Below, one piece after another: positions 7,950 through 30,900 of a stretch of DNA of 64,000 nucleotides. Origin of the DNA: a virus. Numbering within the stretch: position 1 is the stretch's first letter; every line of letters begins with the position of its first letter. The stretch lies in UHGV virus genome UHGV-0318153. One strand, given 5' to 3'. The position numbers were made by a program, and so were the translations under genes. The notes beneath the pieces are model-generated. The model was not told the origin of the DNA. It saw only the letters and a list, made by a program, of their open reading frames with translations, and searched no databases.

Positions 7950-8480
7950 ATGTTTTATATGACTGTTGATACTTGTGTTCATTGTCAGCATTGTATAAAT
8001 AGAATGTTTAATATTGGTCGTATTATTGATATTGGCATAGGATGTATAACTTCTGATATTGTTATTCTTTTGCCTATGTATGGTAATAAGAATTTTCGTA
8101 ATAAATTATTAGAAGATTTAAAAGCTATTTGGCTTGAATATACAGGACGAAATATGCTTGAACAATGTTACATTACATATAATATTAAATGTTCTACTTA
8201 TAATTGTTCATACAAACTTTATGAGAATAGTATGAGTAATTGTCGTAATATATTGAATGAAGAACTTATGAGAGTTCCTTATAGATATATGATTATGATT
8301 AATTCTACTCGTACTATTTTTCCTAATGGTTGTTCTAATAAGATTATCAATTATGGAAAGTATTGTTTTTATAATATAAAATTTCCATTTGATAAATATG
8401 ATGAAGCTGAGGTAAAGAAAGCTATAAAAACAGATTTTGTTAATGCTATAAAATATTATAATATGAGAAGATATACATGA
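7950..8480 (+). CDS. Cys-rich hypothetical protein (176 aa)
   Basis: ORF with several CxxC pairs. Confidence 0.45.
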   Translation: MFYMTVDTCVHCQHCINRMFNIGRIIDIGIGCITSDIVILLPMYGNKNFRNKLLEDLKAIWLEYTGRNMLEQCYITYNIKCSTYNCSYKLYENSMSNCRNILNEELMRVPYRYMIMINSTRTIFPNGCSNKIINYGKYCFYNIKFPFDKYDEAEVKKAIKTDFVNAIKYYNMRRYT

Positions 8481-9757
8481 TAAGAATAGAATGTTATGAT
8501 GTGGAAGTACTTCCTAACTTTTTTAGTATTTGTTTTATTGATTTAGCTAGTTATCTTGATACTTTTAAAGATGTTGTAGATAGTAAAGGAAAACCAATTC
8601 CTATTATCCAAAAAATATCTGTTAAAGAGTTATTACAAAGACTTGATGCTGTAAAATGTAAACAATTTTATATTACAGATAAAGATGATAGTCAGTTATT
8701 TTCAATGATAGAATATATTAATGGATTTAAAGCTAATGAACTTTATCCTCGTAGTGATTTATATGGTTATAATAGTCAAAGTTATGATAATCTTATGATT
8801 GCTGCTTTATTAATGTATTTTGGTCAAACAGATACTACAAAAGAACTTATTACAAAACTTTATGAAACATCAAAAAAGATAATTGAATTACAAGACAATA
8901 AAGATGGTGCTAAGAATGATTTTTTATTAAGAAGTTTGAGAAAATATCCATTACCATTTAAAGGTGTAGATGTTATGAAAATATTTGCTTTGAATAAAGC
9001 TGGAACTATTGTTGATAATAAAACTGGAGAAAAGAAATATGTTCCTAAAGGTTTAAAGCAAACTAGTATTAATCTACAATGGTATGAACTTCTTGAATAT
9101 GAGTTACCTGATATATGTGATAAAGATTATTACTATTATGCAAAAGATACAAGATATAAAGGTTATGATTATAAAAAGCTCACCAATATAATTGATAAAT
9201 GGGATAGATATATAATAGATGAATATATTCCAGATATGATGCATTATAATAAAAATGATGTATTTATTGTTTGTGAAATTGTTCGTCTTAATCCCGATGA
9301 AATTAAATCTCGATATGCTGTTTCTGCTTCTTATAAAGTAGATGTTCTTAATAGTAGTCGTAGTAATATGGCTAATGTTTTATTTCAAAAGTTTTACACT
9401 AAATATAGTGGTATTCCTTATGAAAAATGGAAAGATGGAAGAACTAAAAGAACTGCTATGAATTTAGGTAAGATTATTTTTAATTGTGTTGAATTTAAGA
9501 CACAGCAATTACAAGACTTACTTAAAGAAATAAAAAAGACTACATTATATAGAGTTAGCAAAGATGCTTTTGAGAAAGAAGTTATTATTGGCGATGTTAA
9601 TTATACTCTAGCTACAGGTGGACTTCATAGTAAAGATAGACCAATGGAGATATGGAGTACAACAGATTGGGATATATCTGGCAATTCCTCTACGGGCAAG
9701 CTACAAAAAGATAATGCTTTTACAATTATACATTGGGACATAAGTGACGCAGTGTCG
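8477..9757 (+). CDS. family-B DNA polymerase, exon 1 (3'-5' exonuclease domain and N-terminal half; ends inside motif A ...DAVS)
   Basis: Exo I-like YDVEV, Exo III-like YNKNDVF; terminates in D-A-V-S with the YPSIM remainder of motif A beginning the ORF at 10807. Confidence 0.75.
9685..9705 (+). repeat. dispersed element copy, A orientation, inside DNA polymerase exon 1
   Basis: ttcctctacgggcaagctaca; translated SSTGKLQ (a different frame from the LYGQA copies). Confidence 0.9.
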
Positions 9758-10808
9758 TAATCTCGTGAACTGCTGGAAACTCCTAAAGCTGTTATTACTA
9801 AAACAGAAGATGAAAATCTAAATGGCAATAGTTACGAAAGTAGAAAAGAAATAACAGATGATATATGGAATAATATTCCTAAGTATTTTAATAATGGACA
9901 ATCAGCAGCTAAGACTACTCATTATATTGCGAAATATAATAATAGTAAAGTTCATCGACTATCCGAAAGGAGTACACATTGTTGATAAATGTGGAAGTGC
10001 GAGAAATCTTGTTAATAATATTGCATTTTGAAAAATTAGATATTATCTTTGTCTATATGTTTAATTTTTAATAATATTGATTATGGTAAAATTTAATTTT
10101 TCATTAGTTAAAAAAGAAGTTTATGGTGTTGTTAGAGGTAATGGTGTTATTCCTTATGGAGATTTAGCAAAATACTCTAATGTTATTGGTGTTTATTATA
10201 TTAAATCTAAAACTACTAATAAACAATATATTGGAAGTAGTAAAAATGTACAAAGACGTATTGGAAAACATTTTAGTGAATTAAAATATAATAGACATAG
10301 AGATAAAGATTTGCAAGAAGAATATAATTTATATGGATATTCTAATTTTGAATGCGGATTATATGAAACTTGTAATATAAATGAACTTCTTATTAAAGAA
10401 AAAGAATGGCAAATTAAAATTGGAATAGATAATCTTTATAATCAGAAAATCTCTGGATATTATATTACAGAAGAATTAAGACAAATTCATGCTAGAGCTG
10501 ATAAAAGTTCACATAAAACTAAAGAATATAGAGAAAAAATGAGTAATATAAAAAGTAATTATATAGCTCAATATAATCTTGATGAAACTTTAATTAAAAT
10601 TTGGAATAGTTCTAAAGAAATATGTGATACTCTAGGTTATACTAGAAGTGTAATATTATGTGGATGTAATGGTAGTAAAAAACATCCTTATGGTTATTAT
10701 TGGAGATATTGTGATAGTAAAGGTAATTTATTAGAAAACGGTAGAAAAGGAAAACAAGATTAAGATATAGTCAGGTTCATAGTGAAAGCTATGATGTTAA
10801 TGTGCGTC
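9755..10808 (+). mobile_element. group I intron (IA-like) interrupting DNA polymerase motif A and carrying a GIY-YIG homing endonuclease ORF
   Basis: R-like element GTTCATCGACTATCCG at 9949-9964 and S-like element AAGATATAGTC at 10762-10772 form a P7 (GACTA/TAGTC); P9-like hairpin at 10776-10793; G at 10806 immediately before exon 2; splice junctions uncertain to about +/-3 nt. Confidence 0.7.
10077..10763 (+). CDS. GIY-YIG homing endonuclease (intron-encoded)
   Basis: GVYYIK...YIGSS...R..H..E motif order; C-terminal GYYWRY resembles HEG DNA-binding modules; stop codon overlaps the intron P7 3' strand. Confidence 0.8.
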   Translation: MIMVKFNFSLVKKEVYGVVRGNGVIPYGDLAKYSNVIGVYYIKSKTTNKQYIGSSKNVQRRIGKHFSELKYNRHRDKDLQEEYNLYGYSNFECGLYETCNINELLIKEKEWQIKIGIDNLYNQKISGYYITEELRQIHARADKSSHKTKEYREKMSNIKSNYIAQYNLDETLIKIWNSSKEICDTLGYTRSVILCGCNGSKKHPYGYYWRYCDSKGNLLENGRKGKQD

Positions 10809-11847
10809 TTATTATCCTTCAATTATGGCTGCATATAGTGTTGCACCTGCTCATATGGTTACTAGTGCATTTCGTAATCTTATTCAATGGATGAAAGATA
10901 CTCGTGTTACTGTAAAACATAGTGAAGAAGCAATTATAGATGGTATTCCTAAAGATGTCCTTGCACTTGTATTAAAAATTGTCATTAATAGTATATATGG
11001 TAAATTTGGAGATGAAAATAGTCCACTTTATGATAGACTTGCTACTCTTCAAGTTACTATAAATGGTCAATTAATGATTCTTATGCTTTGTGAAGAACTT
11101 GAACTTAATGGTATTCATGTATTGTCAGCTAATACAGATGGTATTATGGTTAAGTTGTATGAGAAAGATAAAGAATTATTTAATGATATAGCTGATAGAT
11201 GGCAAGAAAAAACTAAAATGAAAGCAGATGCTGATATTCTTCATTGTCTTATAGCAAGAGATATAAATTCGTATATAGCCTTATTTAGAGAAGAAAAGAA
11301 AGGAGTTAGAAAATTAAAGACAGAATTTAAAGGAGCAATGAATCCAGATATGTATCGTATTGACTTACAAAAAGGATATGATAAACCTATTGTTGCTAAA
11401 GCTGTTTATGAGTATTTTATTAATAAAGTTCCTATAATGGAAACTCTTCAAAAAGCTACTAATATTCTTGATTTTTGTATGACTCAAAATGTTGGTAGAC
11501 AATTTCATGTTGAAGAAACGAAAATTGTTAATGGAATGCTTACACGAATAGTTTGTCAGCGATATGTTAGATTTTATATTAGTAATGATGGATATACAAT
11601 AGAAAAAGTTCATAATATTACTAATAGTAGGTCAAGAATGGCAGCTGGAGTTAAAGTTTGTGTTGTTAATACTTTGGATGATACTAATATTAGTTTAAGG
11701 AATATTGATTTTAAATATTATTATAATGAATGTATGAAATTAATAGACCCAATTAAGTTAGGTATTACTCCTAAAGGTAAAGGAAAAAGTAAAATTCGAA
11801 AATTTAGTGGAATGTATAATACTTTATTTGATGATGTAGATGAATAA
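10807..11847 (+). CDS. family-B DNA polymerase, exon 2 (polymerase domain)
   Basis: begins (S)YYPSIM completing motif A; motif B KIVINSIYGKFG (Kx3NSxYG); motif C SANTDGIMV (DTDS-like). Confidence 0.8.
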   Translation, partial: SYYPSIMAAYSVAPAHMVTSAFRNLIQWMKDTRVTVKHSEEAIIDGIPKDVLALVLKIVINSIYGKFGDENSPLYDRLATLQVTINGQLMILMLCEELELNGIHVLSANTDGIMVKLYEKDKELFNDIADRWQEKTKMKADADILHCLIARDINSYIALFREEKKGVRKLKTEFKGAMNPDMYRIDLQKGYDKPIVAKAVYEYFINKVPIMETLQKATNILDFCMTQNVGRQFHVEETKIVNGMLTRIVCQRYVRFYISNDGYTIEKVHNITNSRSRMAAGVKVCVVNTLDDTNISLRNIDFKYYYNECMKLIDPIKLGITPKGKGKSKIRKFSGMYNTLFDDVDE

Positions 11848-25731: not shown

Positions 25732-25923
25732 ATGGAAGAAGAAATTGTTGGAATTTATGATGAAGATGGACAAGGTTATATTTGTGATTGTCCTATATGT
25801 GGTAATACTGTTCATATAGAAGAATATGCAGATGATGAAACAATAGATATGATTACTGATAATGAAGTAGTTGAAATCTATTGCGATAAATGTGATAGTT
25901 ATTTTGAAGCTCAATTAAGTTAG
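25732..25923 (+). CDS. small acidic Cys4 zinc-ribbon protein
   Basis: CDCPICGN...CDKCDSYF. Confidence 0.45.
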   Translation: MEEEIVGIYDEDGQGYICDCPICGNTVHIEEYADDETIDMITDNEVVEIYCDKCDSYFEAQLS

Positions 25924-25960
25924 AAAGGAGGTGAATATGAAAAAGATGTAATAGATAGTA

Positions 25961-26144
25961 TAGCTTGCCCGTAGAGGATATGAGATAATGCTACATTCCC
26001 TACGGGCAAGATACTGCCAGTAAATGTTATAATTTAGTTATTATTAATATTGACAATTTAGTTATTGTTGATATTACAGCTTGCCCGTAGGGAAGTGATG
26101 ATATAGCTAGCTATCATGCCTAGCAATCCTCTACGGGCAAGCTA
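25961..26144. promoter_or_regulatory. intergenic cluster of four dispersed-repeat copies arranged as two inverted pairs (potential cruciforms/hairpins)
   Basis: 25961-25980(-)/25996-26010(+) with ~15-nt spacer; 26078-26095(-)/26127-26144(+) with ~31-nt spacer containing the palindrome atagctagctat. Confidence 0.6.
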
Positions 26145-26339
26145 AAATAATCTAATTGATATTGGAAAAATGAAAGATATTAAAGATACTGTTGTTGATT
26201 TAAGTATTAAATTTATTGCCGCTATTGCTTGTGAAAGTAGTAGCGGTTTTATTTGTGATATGCTGGAACACCAATATTTTATTATATATAATAATATTAT
26301 TAAGGAGCTGTAAATAGCTGATTATCAGGCAGTTACAAA

Positions 26340-26416
26340 CATTTTGCATCACTCATTGCGTGATTGAAATCTAATTATTATATTTGCAATATCGGTCTGA
26401 ATCACTTATAGCGTGA
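26340..26416 (+). promoter_or_regulatory. direct repeat cacty-at-gcgtgattgaaat x2 immediately upstream of the 26417 gene
   Basis: two ~21-bp near-identical copies ~45 bp apart. Confidence 0.4.
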
Positions 26417-27229
26417 TTGAAATTTTATGTCGAATTTAATAATATTGTTATGGGAAAACTTAGTTTTAATGCTAATGAAGTTACTGATAAGAAACTTCTT
26501 AAAGAAGCATTTTATAAAGAATTTGAAGAATATTGGAAAACACTTGAAGAATCAAATGATAATGATTCTATTAATAATGCAATAGAAAATGTTGCTGAAT
26601 TAAAGAAAAAACAAAAGAAAATAAATGATAGTAAATATGTACCTTCTCCTTATGATAGTACAATTAAAGAAAATAGTAAAACTAAAAAAGTTGATAATGT
26701 ATCATTAACATTTAATAATGATACTGTTTCTTCTCCTTTTGTTCAATGCAACCCAATAACAGTTCATACTATTTTAAAAGTTAGTAGAGAAATATCTGGT
26801 TTTGGTAGAGCAAGACATGATAAATCTTCTGTTGTTGGAGAAGGCGGTTTAATAAAAATGTATATGTATATTGTTAGTATTGTTAAAAAAGATAGTAATT
26901 TTATTAAACTTGATAAAGAACGTGTTATGCAATATACAGGAGTTGGAACAAATGGATATGCAGAATATTTAAGAATATTAAATAGATTAAATGTTCTTGT
27001 TGAAATTAAAAATATGAGAAGTTGTTATGTTATAAATCATAATGTTATATACAATGGAGATAAAAAGTATTTATGTGAATGGCTTAATAAAGGTAATAAA
27101 GTTGAATTGAAAAAAGATGAAAATAAGAATTATACTTATATAGAAATAGATGAAAACAATAAAACTAAATTAAATAATATATTTAAGAATACAATATTTG
27201 AACCTTTTGAAGAAGCTAAAATTGAATGA
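26417..27229 (+). CDS. hypothetical protein (270 aa)
   Basis: ORF. Confidence 0.55.
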   Translation: MKFYVEFNNIVMGKLSFNANEVTDKKLLKEAFYKEFEEYWKTLEESNDNDSINNAIENVAELKKKQKKINDSKYVPSPYDSTIKENSKTKKVDNVSLTFNNDTVSSPFVQCNPITVHTILKVSREISGFGRARHDKSSVVGEGGLIKMYMYIVSIVKKDSNFIKLDKERVMQYTGVGTNGYAEYLRILNRLNVLVEIKNMRSCYVINHNVIYNGDKKYLCEWLNKGNKVELKKDENKNYTYIEIDENNKTKLNNIFKNTIFEPFEEAKIE

Positions 27230-27827: not shown

Positions 27828-27880
27828 AGTAGGCGGATGACTGGTTATTAACTGGTTGTCCGCCTATAATTTTTTTCAGT
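27828..27880. terminator. hairpin plus T-run at the convergence point of the two gene blocks
   Basis: ggcgga...tccgcc stem with T7 run; lies between the last + gene and the 3' end of the giant - gene. Confidence 0.35.
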
Positions 27881-27967
27881 TACTCCATCTTCAATATTAG
27901 CAATAATTCTATCAAGTATATTAATACGAAAATGCCCATAAGGAGCGGCATGATTATTACCATGTCA

Positions 27968-27986
27968 TTCCCTACGGGCAAGTTTC
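27968..27986 (+). repeat. dispersed element copy, A orientation, immediately 3' of the giant ORF stop
   Basis: ttccctacgggcaagtttc. Confidence 0.85.
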
Positions 27987-27995
27987 AGTGAGATA

Positions 27996-30900
27996 TTATT
28001 TTCTTATCCATTCACCTATTTTTTTAACAGGTATAACAGACAAAGCATTATCTCCAAGTTTATAATAACTGTTATTATCAGGCAATTCAATAATACGTTG
28101 TATATTACGATATACAGGTATATTTCTACCAATTATAACTTTAAGTTTATTTTCTCCAGCATAACGACCAGTTTTATATTCTCCTTCAAATCCATTATCA
28201 ATCAATGTTTGAACTCCAAATGCTAATCCTTTTAATAAATCATCACCACTTTGCCATATAGCAACAGGACTAGACCAAAGTTTTTCACCTTCACTAGCAA
28301 GACCAATAGGAGTAAATGCAAATGCTTCTGAAGCAAGTCTATCAGCCTGATACATTAATAAATTATACCAAATACTTTCTTCATTATCTTTATCACCTCC
28401 AGCTATTGCAGTCAAAGCAATTGCAGTAACTACAGCAGCACCTGTATAAACAAAATCAGCATAAGCACGTCTAATATTAGCACGTTCATTTTCTGATAAT
28501 AGATTATAATTAAGTTTAATATGAGTAATAAAACTAATAGCATTTTTACAATATTCTTGTATAGCTTGTAGTGTATCAAGTTCTTCTTGACTGCGTTTAT
28601 ATTTAGTTAAATGATAAGGAGTATTAATAAATTGCATAAGACTATTATAAGCACCTTTTTCAATAGTTTCTAATACTTCATCATAATAACCATGTCGTCT
28701 ATATCTTTTCTTAAATCCAGGATATAGATGTTTATGGAATTGCATTACAATACCACCCCACCATTCATTTTCAATTTTAGCAGCACCAATTTTATCATAT
28801 ACACCATGAACTTTCTTATTAACTTTGATAACTTTTTCTACAAGTTTTGCAAAGTCTTTGAGTTCAATATCTGCATCAGCTTTTAGATTTGCATAATCAT
28901 CAACAAGTTCAAATTGACTATAAACATCTGGCAATTCTTCAAACTTTTTCTTTGCTTCTTTCATCAACTCTTTACGTTTTCTTACAAATTCAATCATTCT
29001 TTCTTTTGTAAGATGTGTTCTAATAAAATCTGTTATAACATTATCATTAAACATATTATAATTAGCACGTCTATTTTCATCAGCAAGAATATCATTAAAG
29101 AATTTATCATAAGCATCACGTTCTTCTTCATTCAGTACAATCATTAATGCTTCTAATTCTTTTTCTCGTTTAAACATTTCAAACGATACTATTTTAACAT
29201 TACCATCAGCATCTTTAATTATACGATGATTTTTCATCATTGTCAAAAGAACAGTATTTTGCATATAATGTTCACCAGCAGTTTGTGGAGTAAATAACAA
29301 ACCTCTTAACTTCTTTATATTACCTTTTATATCATTAGCTGTCAATTCTGCTATTCTATCATAATCAACAACATTTGCCAGTTTTATAATACCATCTTGT
29401 AATGTAGTAGATTTATCATTATACATATTAGACATATAACTAATAGCACCACCAACATAAAGATTTTGACCAACTATCCAATCTTTCTCATTAAAGTATT
29501 CTCTAGCAAATCTTTCTGCTGCAAGGTTAGTCTGACCTGTAAGAATATTTGCAATACCACCAGTAATATTTAACATCATATATTTAGTACCAGCCATATT
29601 TTGAGCAATACTAGCAAACTTTAATAACTGTGGATTGGTATTATTTTTATAAGTATCTCTTACAACTCTACGAATATAATTTCTTAATTGAGCAGATGTA
29701 TTGCGATTACTTTCAGTTTTATATTCAACTTCACTTTCTGCACTTAATCTATAATCTTGTATTAATTCATTTTTATAATTAAGTTTATAAGCATCATAAC
29801 TCAACAAAGCATCATCAGCTGCATATAATTTACCTTTAATTAATCTAATAGCATCATATCTAGCACTATTTATTATAAACGATTTAAATACATTTTCCCA
29901 ATCTTTATTGATTAATTGATTATGTATCTTTTCATTTTCTTCTCTTATCTTAGCATTAACATCTTTAGCTTCTTGTTTACGTTTAATAAATTCAGCTTCA
30001 CTTTCACCAGGTTTAGGAAAATGAGGAACTTCAACATATTTAGAACTATTTCTATCCAATAACATTTGCAACATTGGATTATCTTTTTCTTCATCAGTAT
30101 TATAAGTTATATTTTCCAAATCTTGCCATTTAGTATCAGTAGGAATATTAGAACTAATACCAATAAATGCCATAGCTTCTTTAAATATATCTTTATAATC
30201 AAATTCTTTTTCTTTACTAATAGAAGGAAGATAACCTTGTTTTACATAATATTTATTACTATCAGTAAAAGCATATTGCATCATTATCTTCTTTAGATTA
30301 TTCAACAATTTTAATTCATATTCATTTAATGCTTTATAATTAGAATTATCATAACTTACTTCTTTACGAGTTCCATCTTCTTGCTTAGCTTTATATGTAC
30401 TACCTTCTTTATAAGTTGGATAATTCTTATCATATTTCTCATTAAGATAATCTTTATTAGGTTCTAAATCTGTCTGATTAATTCTAGCTTCCCATTTACC
30501 TTTAGCTTTATTACCGCTTTCATCTATATATTCAGTATGTGTCCATATTTTTAATGGTTCATATTGACGACTATAAGGATTATAATAATGATTATCAAAA
30601 TACCATTTTTTAAATTCTTCTTTACTCATATTATCTCTATTAGTTCTCATAACTTCATAATAATATTGAGTTTTAGTATTTTGAACGTGTTTATTAATCA
30701 ATCTTATATAATCAGTTTTATTTTTATTAACCCATTTACTTTCATCTTTAGGTTTAAGAACGCCATAGAATATTGTATTAGGAACAACATTACCTTCATC
30801 ATCTACAGTTTCAAATACTTTTTTCCATGCTTGATACCATTCATCACCATTTTTGTATGCTCTTGCTCTATCTGCTTCATAAGCCGCATTATTATATGTA

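Follow-up and report, generated by a model that had tools for sequence, protein, structure and literature searches.

The island at 25924-26416 and the gene that follows it

The 64,000-nt stretch of the virus genome UHGV-0318153 analyzed here (the window) contains, at 25924-26416, an island between genes that holds four copies of a dispersed motif and leads into a gene resembling the RepL family of replication initiators. The window has a GC content of 26%. Megablast returned short matches alone, all of them to crAss-like phages, and gene order together with protein matches shows that the window is colinear with prototype crAssphage, Carjivirus communis (BK010471.1). Both genomes run through helicase, UDG, PolB, SNF2 ATPase, ThyX, Gp157/Gam-like, DUF932 and dUTPase genes before a giant RNAP gene on the opposite strand. 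In the window the + strand gene block extends to ~27.9 kb and is followed by a - strand block that opens with the 4340-aa open reading frame (ORF) of the RNAP. Relatives from IMG/VR are both close (90-99% identity) and distant (30-46% amino-acid identity); contigs that need to be told apart carry labels such as L152 or 110116.

The left edge of the island is the stop codon of a gene for a 63-aa zinc-ribbon protein (25732..25923, +), the last gene of the upstream replication and nucleotide-metabolism operon, which is present in the ORF list, has weak zinc-ribbon Pfam matches and is kept in relatives. The sequence then reads a Shine-Dalgarno-like AAAGGAGGTGA and a mini-ORF, ATG AAA AAG ATG TAA (25926..25951, +). 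Motif copy 1 (variant A, TAGCTTGCCCGTAGAGGAT), located by pattern match, lies at 25961..25979 (+, core 25964-25978) and copy 2 (variant B, ...CTTGCCCGTAGGGAAT) at 25995..26013 on the - strand (core 25996-26010). An AT-rich spacer at 26014..26076, in which a repeat search found two tandem 21-nt repeats (26031-26051 and 26055-26075; 90% identical, period 24), separates these from copy 3 (variant B, 26077..26095, +, core 26080-26094, again a pattern match) and copy 4 (variant A, 26126..26144, -, core 26127-26141). The original prediction for this locus had listed the four motif copies and, further on, an ORF and a repeated 21-mer; all of them are found within 3 nt of the positions it gave, with strand labels in the opposite convention. 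It had also placed a palindrome in the second loop, and this is indeed present (ATAGCTAGCTAT, 26103..26114).

Each copy can pair with either of two partners. Copies 1 and 2 form hairpin 1 (19 nt, 84% complementarity, 15-nt gap) and copies 3 and 4 form hairpin 2 (26 nt, 81% complementarity, 26-nt gap), so that the two hairpin- or cruciform-capable inverted pairs claimed earlier are borne out by the pairing check at 25961-26144. A nested alternative had been missed, in which copies 1 and 4 (24 nt, 92%) enclose copies 2 and 3 (15/15); the ViennaRNA minimum-energy fold of the island is this nested form, as DNA and as RNA. Folding had been proposed as a check, and the whole-island fold is far more stable than those of shuffled sequences (z = -9.9 as DNA, -5.9 as RNA). 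Over five sequence variants the two-hairpin and nested forms are about equally preserved. The single informative event is found in relative 110116, where the two arms of hairpin 2 (copies 3 and 4) have corresponding changes (C>T / G>A); it slightly favors the local hairpins. Hairpins 1 and 2 do not qualify as Rho-independent terminators, with loops of 15 and 26 nt, no T-run and no call by the terminator scan. Rfam 15 gave no match in the window at gathering thresholds, and only sub-threshold matches at chance level in the island.

Downstream of the motif copies, the ORF list contains a 47-codon ORF (26170..26313, +) that is intact in five relatives and absent from L153. Inside this ORF the terminator scan detected a terminator-like RNA hairpin, GCCGCTATTGC-TTGTGAAA-GTAGTAGCGGT followed by the T-run TTTTATTTG (26218..26257, +), which is probably the terminator of the upstream operon. 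The hairpin loop, TTGYYTGTGAARRTAG, has exactly three occurrences, at 1805, 1934 and 26225. The stems around it differ between copies yet pair, with compensatory changes and with G.U pairs that are valid on the + strand only. The 47-codon ORF had been described as a paralogue of the ORF at 1765-1983. The similarity is real, but because it is centered on the hairpin, with the same loop three times and stems that compensate, it is best explained as a repeated terminator-like RNA hairpin. The + strand family has three members (1794-1830, 1925-1965 and 26218-26257), each of which lies in a small ORF and in the same frame of it (peptide xCExS); two of them are followed by a T-run. The region, described earlier as a non-coding island, does not look non-coding throughout: it holds a conserved mini-ORF, the conserved 47-codon ORF and a terminator.

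The gene that follows (26450..27229, +; ATG at 26450, with the ORF opening at a TTG at 26417) encodes 259 aa and is, on sequence comparison, a remote RepL-family homologue, by an assignment that is transitive via crAssphage gp43 and gp88. The protein aligns to the RepL region of gp43 (BLASTP E 3e-8), gp43 and gp88 both score above the cutoff of Pfam RepL (PF05732), and a profile of the window protein's family matches the gp43+gp88 profile (hhalign, 93% probability, E 3e-7). For these reasons we regard the island as the upstream region of a RepL-family-like gene. The position of the gene is also that of gp43, the last gene of the + block. A PHROG search with the protein gave no match, and a PDB sequence search with the RepL-like profile gave no meaningful match.

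Two dyads found by the repeat search, each reading ATCAC-N7-GTGAT and then TGAAAT, precede this gene. Site 1 lies at 26348..26370 (+) and site 2, 53 bp after it, at 26401..26423 (+), its end 27 nt ahead of the repL-like ATG. They contain the 21-mer that had been reported to occur twice here (26350-26370 and 26403-26423), and there is no other occurrence in the window. Between the dyads lies the octamer TATATTTG (26379..26386, +), which is found at the same place in L152-L155 and in the divergent L149 allele. It matches TAnnTTTG, which we take to be the consensus of the Bacteroidetes -7 promoter box; no convincing -33 box was found to accompany it. The arrangement fits a pair of operators that would flank a promoter. 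A CRISPR-like mini-array, considered for the 21-mers ending ATTGAAAT, was rejected: there are two copies only, at a 53-bp period (~22-30 bp between them) and directly 5' of a start codon, and the unit swaps together with the allele of the downstream gene.

Conservation among relatives and the crAssphage repL regions

A non-coding gap of 476-718 bp lies 5' of every repL-like homologue placed on a contig. Relatives L152, L154 and L155, with RepL proteins 80-89% identical to that of the window, retain the four motif copies, the AT-rich tandem repeats, the small ORF with its hairpin and the ATCAC-N7-GTGAT pair; the AT-rich tandem-repeat spacer is retained in L152, L154 and L149. The core of the palindrome in the second loop, AGCTAGC, is found in all relatives and the full 8-bp AGCTAGCT in 4/5. 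AAAGGAGGT and the mini-ORF are retained in L152, L155 and L149, and L154 has ATA for ATG. The string AAAGGAGG is conserved in 5/6 relatives examined, L151 having AAAGGAAAT, and different mini-ORFs occur in L153 and L151. A perfect Shine-Dalgarno-like AAAGGAGGTGA with a 4-codon mini-ORF is unusual among Bacteroidetes-type translation signals.

L153 (RepL 65% identical) has the same dyad 21-mers, but a single inverted pair in another motif dialect: ACTCCCCGTAAAGGATGGA, ~105 nt of AT-rich DNA, then TCCCTTACGGGGAGT. Relative 110116 combines window-type motif pairs with a RepL allele that is 42% identical. Where the RepL-like allele is 65-89% identical, the dyads read ATCAC-N7-GTGAT; where it is 42% identical (L149/110116), they read ATCCC-N7-GGGAT and TTCCC-N7-GGGAT. 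Since the dyads follow the RepL allele and the inverted pair follows the motif dialect of the genome, we argue that the dyads are the cognate sites of the RepL-like protein, and they are probable candidates for binding by the RepL-like protein, as operators and/or iterons. Linkage alone could also account for this co-inheritance. Whether relatives conserve the inverted pairs was a further question of the original prediction. They do so in L152, L154, L155 and 110116, and L153 keeps the inverted arrangement in its own dialect; L151 and L044 are without pairs.

The same order of parts is found at both crAssphage repL regions (28040-28720 and 95745-96140), namely an inverted motif pair with an AT-rich spacer, a terminator, direct repeats with internal palindromes, and repL. 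At 28040-28215 the motif pair encloses ~75 nt of AT-rich DNA and is followed by a terminator, gp42, repeats and gp43, so that the terminator is 3' of the motif pair as it is in the window. At 95745-95880 the pair encloses ~95 nt of AT-rich DNA and is succeeded by a direct repeat of 27 nt in two copies, with a CCATACATGG palindrome, and then by gp88. The AT-rich spacers inside the motif pairs of crAssphage and L153 (~75-105 nt) are comparable to that of the island. The crAssphage regions are thus like the island in the order of parts and in their position at the end of the + strand replication module; they differ in dialect (ACYCCCCGTRGAGGATGGA), in having one pair rather than two, and in the dyad sequences. 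In a 2024 preprint, crAssphage was proposed to be a phage-plasmid with two repL genes, and an origin was predicted directly upstream of the first repL by Ori-Finder with support from Nanopore coverage (Schmidtke et al., PMC10983915). The motif repeats and hairpins described here go unmentioned in that work.

The surroundings of the island are strongly mosaic. Compared with contig 3300045988_098176, the window is 84% identical over 21-23 kb and 99% identical over the island and the repL-like gene; the dUTPase protein is 87% identical and the adjoining island 99.6% identical. Between dUTPase and island lies a variable site for cassettes (L152 674-1270; L155 601-1032; L154 1052-1969), filled in relatives by an HNH/NUMOD4 endonuclease, a dCMP deaminase or a Phage_gp49_66/Sequestin protein.

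A dispersed motif with lineage-specific dialects

The motif from which the island hairpins are built is 18-20 bp long in the window, tgTAGCTTGCCCGTAGRGRA (full form tgTAGCTTGCCCGTAG(A)GGA(W)), with variants A (...GTAGAGGA) and B (...GTAGGGAA) one base apart. In the window this pattern is matched 27 times, where 0.28 matches would be expected. Prototype crAssphage has 32 copies, 11 of them intergenic, in the dialect t(a/t)gACYCCCCGTRGAGGATGGA. Cultured crAss002 (Churivirinae) has 28 copies of TTCCCCCRTARAGGAG, the mouse phage ctbg_1 (Whopevirus) has 23 copies of CTGGCCCGTARAGRG against 0.3 in shuffles, and distant relatives of the window use TAGCTTGCCCGTAGAGGG. At least four Intestiviridae lineages therefore have the motif, and its dialect differs from one lineage to the next. 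In the first 50 kb of crAss001 (Steigviridae) there is no clear equivalent, only a weak enrichment of CTCCAGAAGGA that is possibly codon-driven.

Positions are conserved over long distances. At 7/12 window sites whose protein context can be aligned to crAssphage (22-55% identity), crAssphage has a site at the orthologous position and in the same orientation (p = 9e-10); these sites lie in PolB, the SNF2 ATPase, a 394-aa replication protein, RNAP and a tail tubular protein. One of them is read in different frames in the two genomes (ILPVEE versus QTPRGGY), which places the constraint on DNA and not on protein. Within the window, 18/26 copies fall in ORFs, which read them in four different frames (SLPVE, SSTGKL, LYGQA, SLRAS). 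These four frames and the frame difference at the orthologous site rule out a protein-level explanation. Orthologous sites carry the dialect of their own genome, a concerted change that is expected if the sites co-evolve with one reader. All 19 window copies alignable to a relative that is 90-95% identical are also present in it, without insertion polymorphism. Short-term purifying selection was not significant (divergence of 3.7% in the motif and 5.7% in the flanks), so the evidence for constraint is long-range.

The copies are also evenly spread. With pairs less than 500 bp apart merged, the coefficient of variation (CV) of spacing was 0.45-0.58 in three genomes, compared to ~0.8 for random placement. 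Taken by strand in four genomes, spacing was significantly even on 6/8 strands: crAssphage + (CV 0.31, p <0.001) and - (0.50, p 0.006), window + (0.41, p 0.001), crAss002 - (0.40, p <0.001), and ctbg_1 - (0.40, p 0.001) and + (0.56, p 0.039). The window - strand (0.73, p 0.23) and the crAss002 + strand (1.03, p 0.77) were not significant. Neighboring sites switch orientation in 76/108 cases (p = 1.4e-5), and 16/17 pairs less than 500 bp apart are inverted (p = 1.4e-4). Such close pairs are both convergent and divergent, with no consistent terminal-inverted-repeat polarity. Strand counts are 13+/13- in the window, 18+/14- in crAssphage, 11+/17- in crAss002 and 11+/12- in ctbg_1. The claim that the motif is clustered only in the island holds for three or more copies; close inverted pairs also occur at 920/1342, 5714/6011, 44352/44474 and 56548/56703. 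The further suggestion that the island is where the dispersed elements are read is not supported, as single copies are evenly spaced and strand-alternating by themselves, and the RepL allele co-varies with the 21-mers and not with the motif.

Single copies show no unusual local structure: 155-nt folds around them are no more stable than background, and only the island and the copy at 27968 stand out. The latter (27968-27982) has a degenerate inverted partner at 27933-27945 (GCCCATAAGGAG) and a U-run, and forms a terminator-like hairpin (27933..27982, -) just past the stop of the 4340-aa RNAP gene (z = -3.8 for - strand RNA). As read from the sequence its stem needs G.U pairs, so that it would work only in the RNAP mRNA. 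A motif copy just past the RNAP stop recurs in four lineages (window, L044, L151 and ctbg_1). At the strand switch this hairpin converges with a strong intrinsic terminator that ends the + strand gene block (27829..27867, +; 18-bp stem and T-run, called by the terminator scan).

Seven crAssphage copies carry an extra ~25-nt GC-rich module (CGCTYCGCT-like) 5' of the motif (L145 6021, 28077, 28172 and 44953; L146 8727, 43667 and 45864, which are 58727, 93667 and 95864 in the record). In most of the seven the module forms a small hairpin with a varying stem (GGCAC-TAC-GTGCC, GAGC-TTC-GCTC), and two of the seven copies lie inside genes. The motif copy at 9686 in the window lies ~75 nt ahead of a break in the family-B DNA polymerase, which is apparently split at 8477-11847. 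Its N-terminal part (8477-9760) aligns to crAssphage PolB, its C-terminal part (10825-11847) matches Pfam DNA_pol_B, and a GIY-YIG endonuclease ORF (10077-10763, Pfam E 1e-9) lies between them; the split is probably an intron or a homing-endonuclease insertion.

The paper on the phi14:2 RNAP reports no common motif for early promoters and does not mention the dispersed motif. Our text search of the literature for motif strings with keywords, whose coverage is incomplete and which can give absence of evidence only, found no description, and the motif system is apparently undescribed so far.

Possible functions of the island and of the motif

Our preferred reading, to which we assign a probability of roughly one half, is that the island would be a conserved control region 5' of a gene for a RepL-type initiator-like protein, the counterpart of the non-coding region before crAssphage gp43, and would serve as a RepL-dependent origin; a role as a replication origin is plausible from its parts. 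The upstream operon would end at the left edge of the island, and the terminator-like hairpin inside the 47-codon ORF would close its transcript. The RepL-like protein may bind the two dyads, 53 bp apart and bracketing the -7-like box, for autoregulation and/or origin recognition. The four motif copies would form hairpin- or cruciform-capable inverted repeats around the tandemly repeated spacer, and the AT-rich DNA between these GC-rich arms would be the melting region of the origin. The arms themselves may act as strand-specific signals or as a cruciform, the dispersed motif being a separate genome-wide, strand-specific cis signal that the island would employ as an inverted pair. The original prediction had read the architecture as an origin, a packaging or nicking site, or a regulatory switch. 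What stands of this is a conserved cis-regulatory node, as opposed to a gap that arose by chance, beside a RepL-like gene, as at both crAssphage repL genes; nothing points to pac/cos, and the module is missing in L151 and L044.

Known replicons offer partial parallels. The oriV of IncQ/RSF1010 combines iterons with an AT-rich region and the inverted ssiA/ssiB priming signals. The island is similar in having putative initiator-binding repeats, AT-rich DNA and a large inverted repeat of two strand-specific signals. IncQ, however, has no dispersed copies and an unrelated initiator and primase, and priming is at most a candidate role of the motif. In pSN2-type RepL plasmids, the cis site is close to or within the initiator gene. 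The P1 lytic replicon (RepL/oriL; PMC10983915) and these plasmids have a RepL-family initiator with a cis site near or within its gene, as is proposed for the island; the difference is that the window protein is only a remote relative of RepL.

Several observations weigh against the island as a RepL-dependent origin. The window protein has no direct Pfam match, and covariation in five variants is too little to separate the two-hairpin from the nested form. L151 and L044 have neither repL nor the pairs at this position and carry an ordinary terminator and one motif copy, which, by the refuting condition that the original prediction had set, makes the island accessory rather than universal and the RepL module dispensable for the phage lineage. 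The published crAssphage origin (PMC10983915) is at the first repL and not at the syntenic last one. The GC-skew analysis proposed for the locus did find a flip, at ~27.9 kb, but it coincides with the gene-strand switch, so that replication and transcription are confounded and the flip is uninformative on the origin. Hairpins 1 and 2 lie in the 3' untranslated region (UTR) of the upstream operon and could be just RNA stabilizers, and RNA hairpins in the 5' UTR would account for the dyad symmetry just as well.

In an alternative that we consider possible though doubtful, the island is purely transcriptional punctuation and not an origin. Hairpins 1 and 2 would be 3'-UTR stabilizers or processing sites, the hairpin at 26218-26257 a terminator, and the dyads operators of an autoregulated winged helix-turn-helix gene. 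The terminator at 26218-26257 is canonical, an ordinary terminator occupies the same position in L151 and another lies downstream of the crAssphage motif pair, and the -7-like box is conserved between the dyads. As we read the sequence, a G.U pair in hairpin 1 favors + strand RNA, and the motif-built hairpin at 27933-27982, also with G.U pairs, resembles an RNA terminator. Hairpins 1 and 2, however, have no U-runs, no role in transcription suggests itself for the AT-rich tandem repeats between the arms, and the link to RepL-family genes is seen three times.

It is improbable that the motif is a selfish mobile mini-element, similar to REP (repetitive extragenic palindromic)/REPIN elements, miniature inverted-repeat transposable elements or GC clusters, with the island as a tolerated insertion hot spot. 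Such an element would agree with a GC-rich 18-20-mer in a genome of 26% GC, the intergenic enrichment in crAssphage (11/32 copies), REPIN-like inverted doublets, the extra GC-rich module on some crAssphage copies, and a short-term substitution rate not significantly below that of the flanks. Random insertion would not, however, produce even spacing on 6/8 strands with alternation. The sharing of 19/19 alignable copies with the 90-95% identical relative, the 7/12 comparable sites orthologous with crAssphage in the same orientation and the lack of a consistent terminal-inverted-repeat polarity also speak against mobility, and no transposase or RAYT is annotated in crAssphage. REP, BIME and REPIN sequences are likewise short GC-rich repeats that form hairpin-capable inverted doublets, but REPs are extragenic and RAYT-mobilized, whereas 18/26 window copies of the motif are in ORFs and sites are orthologous across deep divergence. 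Inverted and direct repeats in non-coding DNA, as in the island, are typical of pac/cos regions, yet a packaging or genome-end site is very unlikely here, as the island is in the replication module beside repL with no terminase gene within the 64-kb window, the terminase is ~60 kb from the equivalent region in colinear crAssphage, and the module is missing in relatives that still must package DNA.

For the motif as a whole we offer a tentative proposal, namely that Intestiviridae crAss phages, among them the most abundant phage of the human gut and the cultured crAss002, may carry a genome-wide punctuation signal that has so far gone undescribed. It would be strand-specific, 17-20 bp long, with a core CCC-R-T-R-R-AGG and a lineage-specific 5' tetranucleotide, recurring every 5-8 kb per strand in alternating orientation, staying at orthologous positions even within genes and where the reading frame has shifted, and co-evolving with a putative phage-encoded reader; the inverted pairs by repL would be its origin-proximal use. 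Even spacing on most strands and alternating orientation, taken with the conservation of the motif between lineages, suggest a strand-specific process or machine that travels along DNA. Candidate roles, held with lower confidence than the island reading, are priming on a single-stranded template, polar attenuation of a processive helicase-nuclease, or nicking. DnaG-type primases can use a CTA/TTA trinucleotide; the complementary strand of the motif reads ...CTA/TTA... and would template a purine-rich AGAGGA primer, which makes single-strand priming a candidate. Orientation is not biased between the two halves of a genome, which speaks against a simple scheme in which the sites prime the lagging strands of two forks that leave a single fixed origin, and inverted copies only 30-50 bp apart argue against constitutive nicking at all sites.

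Consensus sites of nicks (localized single-strand interruptions) in phages T5, phiKMV and tf offer a parallel for nicking: tf has 14 of them in 46 kb, relatives share their positions, and the consensus is lineage-specific, which suggests co-evolution with the enzyme (PMC3517423). The crAss motif is alike in density, in positional conservation and in a lineage-specific consensus. The published sites are all on one strand, however, whereas the crAss motif uses both strands equally, and nicking at its inverted copies 30-50 bp apart would make double-strand breaks; a one-strand nick motif is rejected for the window, crAssphage, crAss002 and ctbg_1. Cluster A mycobacteriophage stoperators are also asymmetric dispersed sites, ~25-35 in number and read by one phage protein, but they are mostly intergenic and co-oriented with transcription, while crAss sites are mostly intragenic and alternating. 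Bacterial uptake sequences (DUS/USS), with their dialects, and Chi share more features with the motif, being short and oriented, on both strands, in genes in all frames, evenly spread, with lineage dialects and intergenic inverted pairs. To our knowledge the crAss motif is much longer than any Chi. It also differs in being a property of phage genomes: none of 185,579 species genomes scanned with TAGCTTGCCCGTAGRGRA carries it at genome-wide density, and a host uptake sequence was rejected.

That scan returned 30 stretches, with multiple copies only in this same phage, binned in a metagenome-assembled genome (MAG), and in seven copies of an unrelated-looking repeat in one MAG. In the MAG 'Clostridia bacterium HGM13660', contigs CAAECB010000035.1 and 037.1 (21.5 and 63 kb) belong to this crAss-like phage, with ~95% identity to the window; their presence there is likely a binning artefact and no evidence on the host. 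In MAG213 'Deltaproteobacteria' JBLMZC01 (L118, L121, L124, L125, L128, L133, L139), the seven copies of aaaCTTGTCCGTATAGCTTGCCCGTAGGGGAt contain the exact phage 18-mer and are flanked by microsatellite-like runs (GAGAATTGA..., GTTGTCGGTT...); no homologue of any window protein was found at these loci. The exact 18-mer could reflect coincidence or a shared reader.

Two candidate readers were rejected. RepL is excluded by the uncoupling of its allele and dyads from the motif dialect. An IHF-like reader was considered because crAssphage gp52 is annotated as IHF/histone-like, but the window homologue of gp52 matches Pfam tail ring protein 2; the neighboring gp51 homologue in the window gave no informative match. 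The motif does not mark recombination hot spots either, as 12% of 42 identity breakpoints lie within 150 bp of a site versus 10% at random (p = 0.45). Both crAss002, which is in culture, and crAssphage, which can be cultured, have the motif, so that its reader is open to experimental identification; the dialects might also help to assign Crassvirales genomes to lineages.

Few viruses of the human gut are as abundant as the crAss-like phages, and their mode of replication and persistence is a matter of debate, to which the phage-plasmid proposal is a recent contribution. The island adds a new case of a control or origin-like region linked to RepL. In its conserved RepL control module it offers candidate initiator-binding sites that are open to direct tests.

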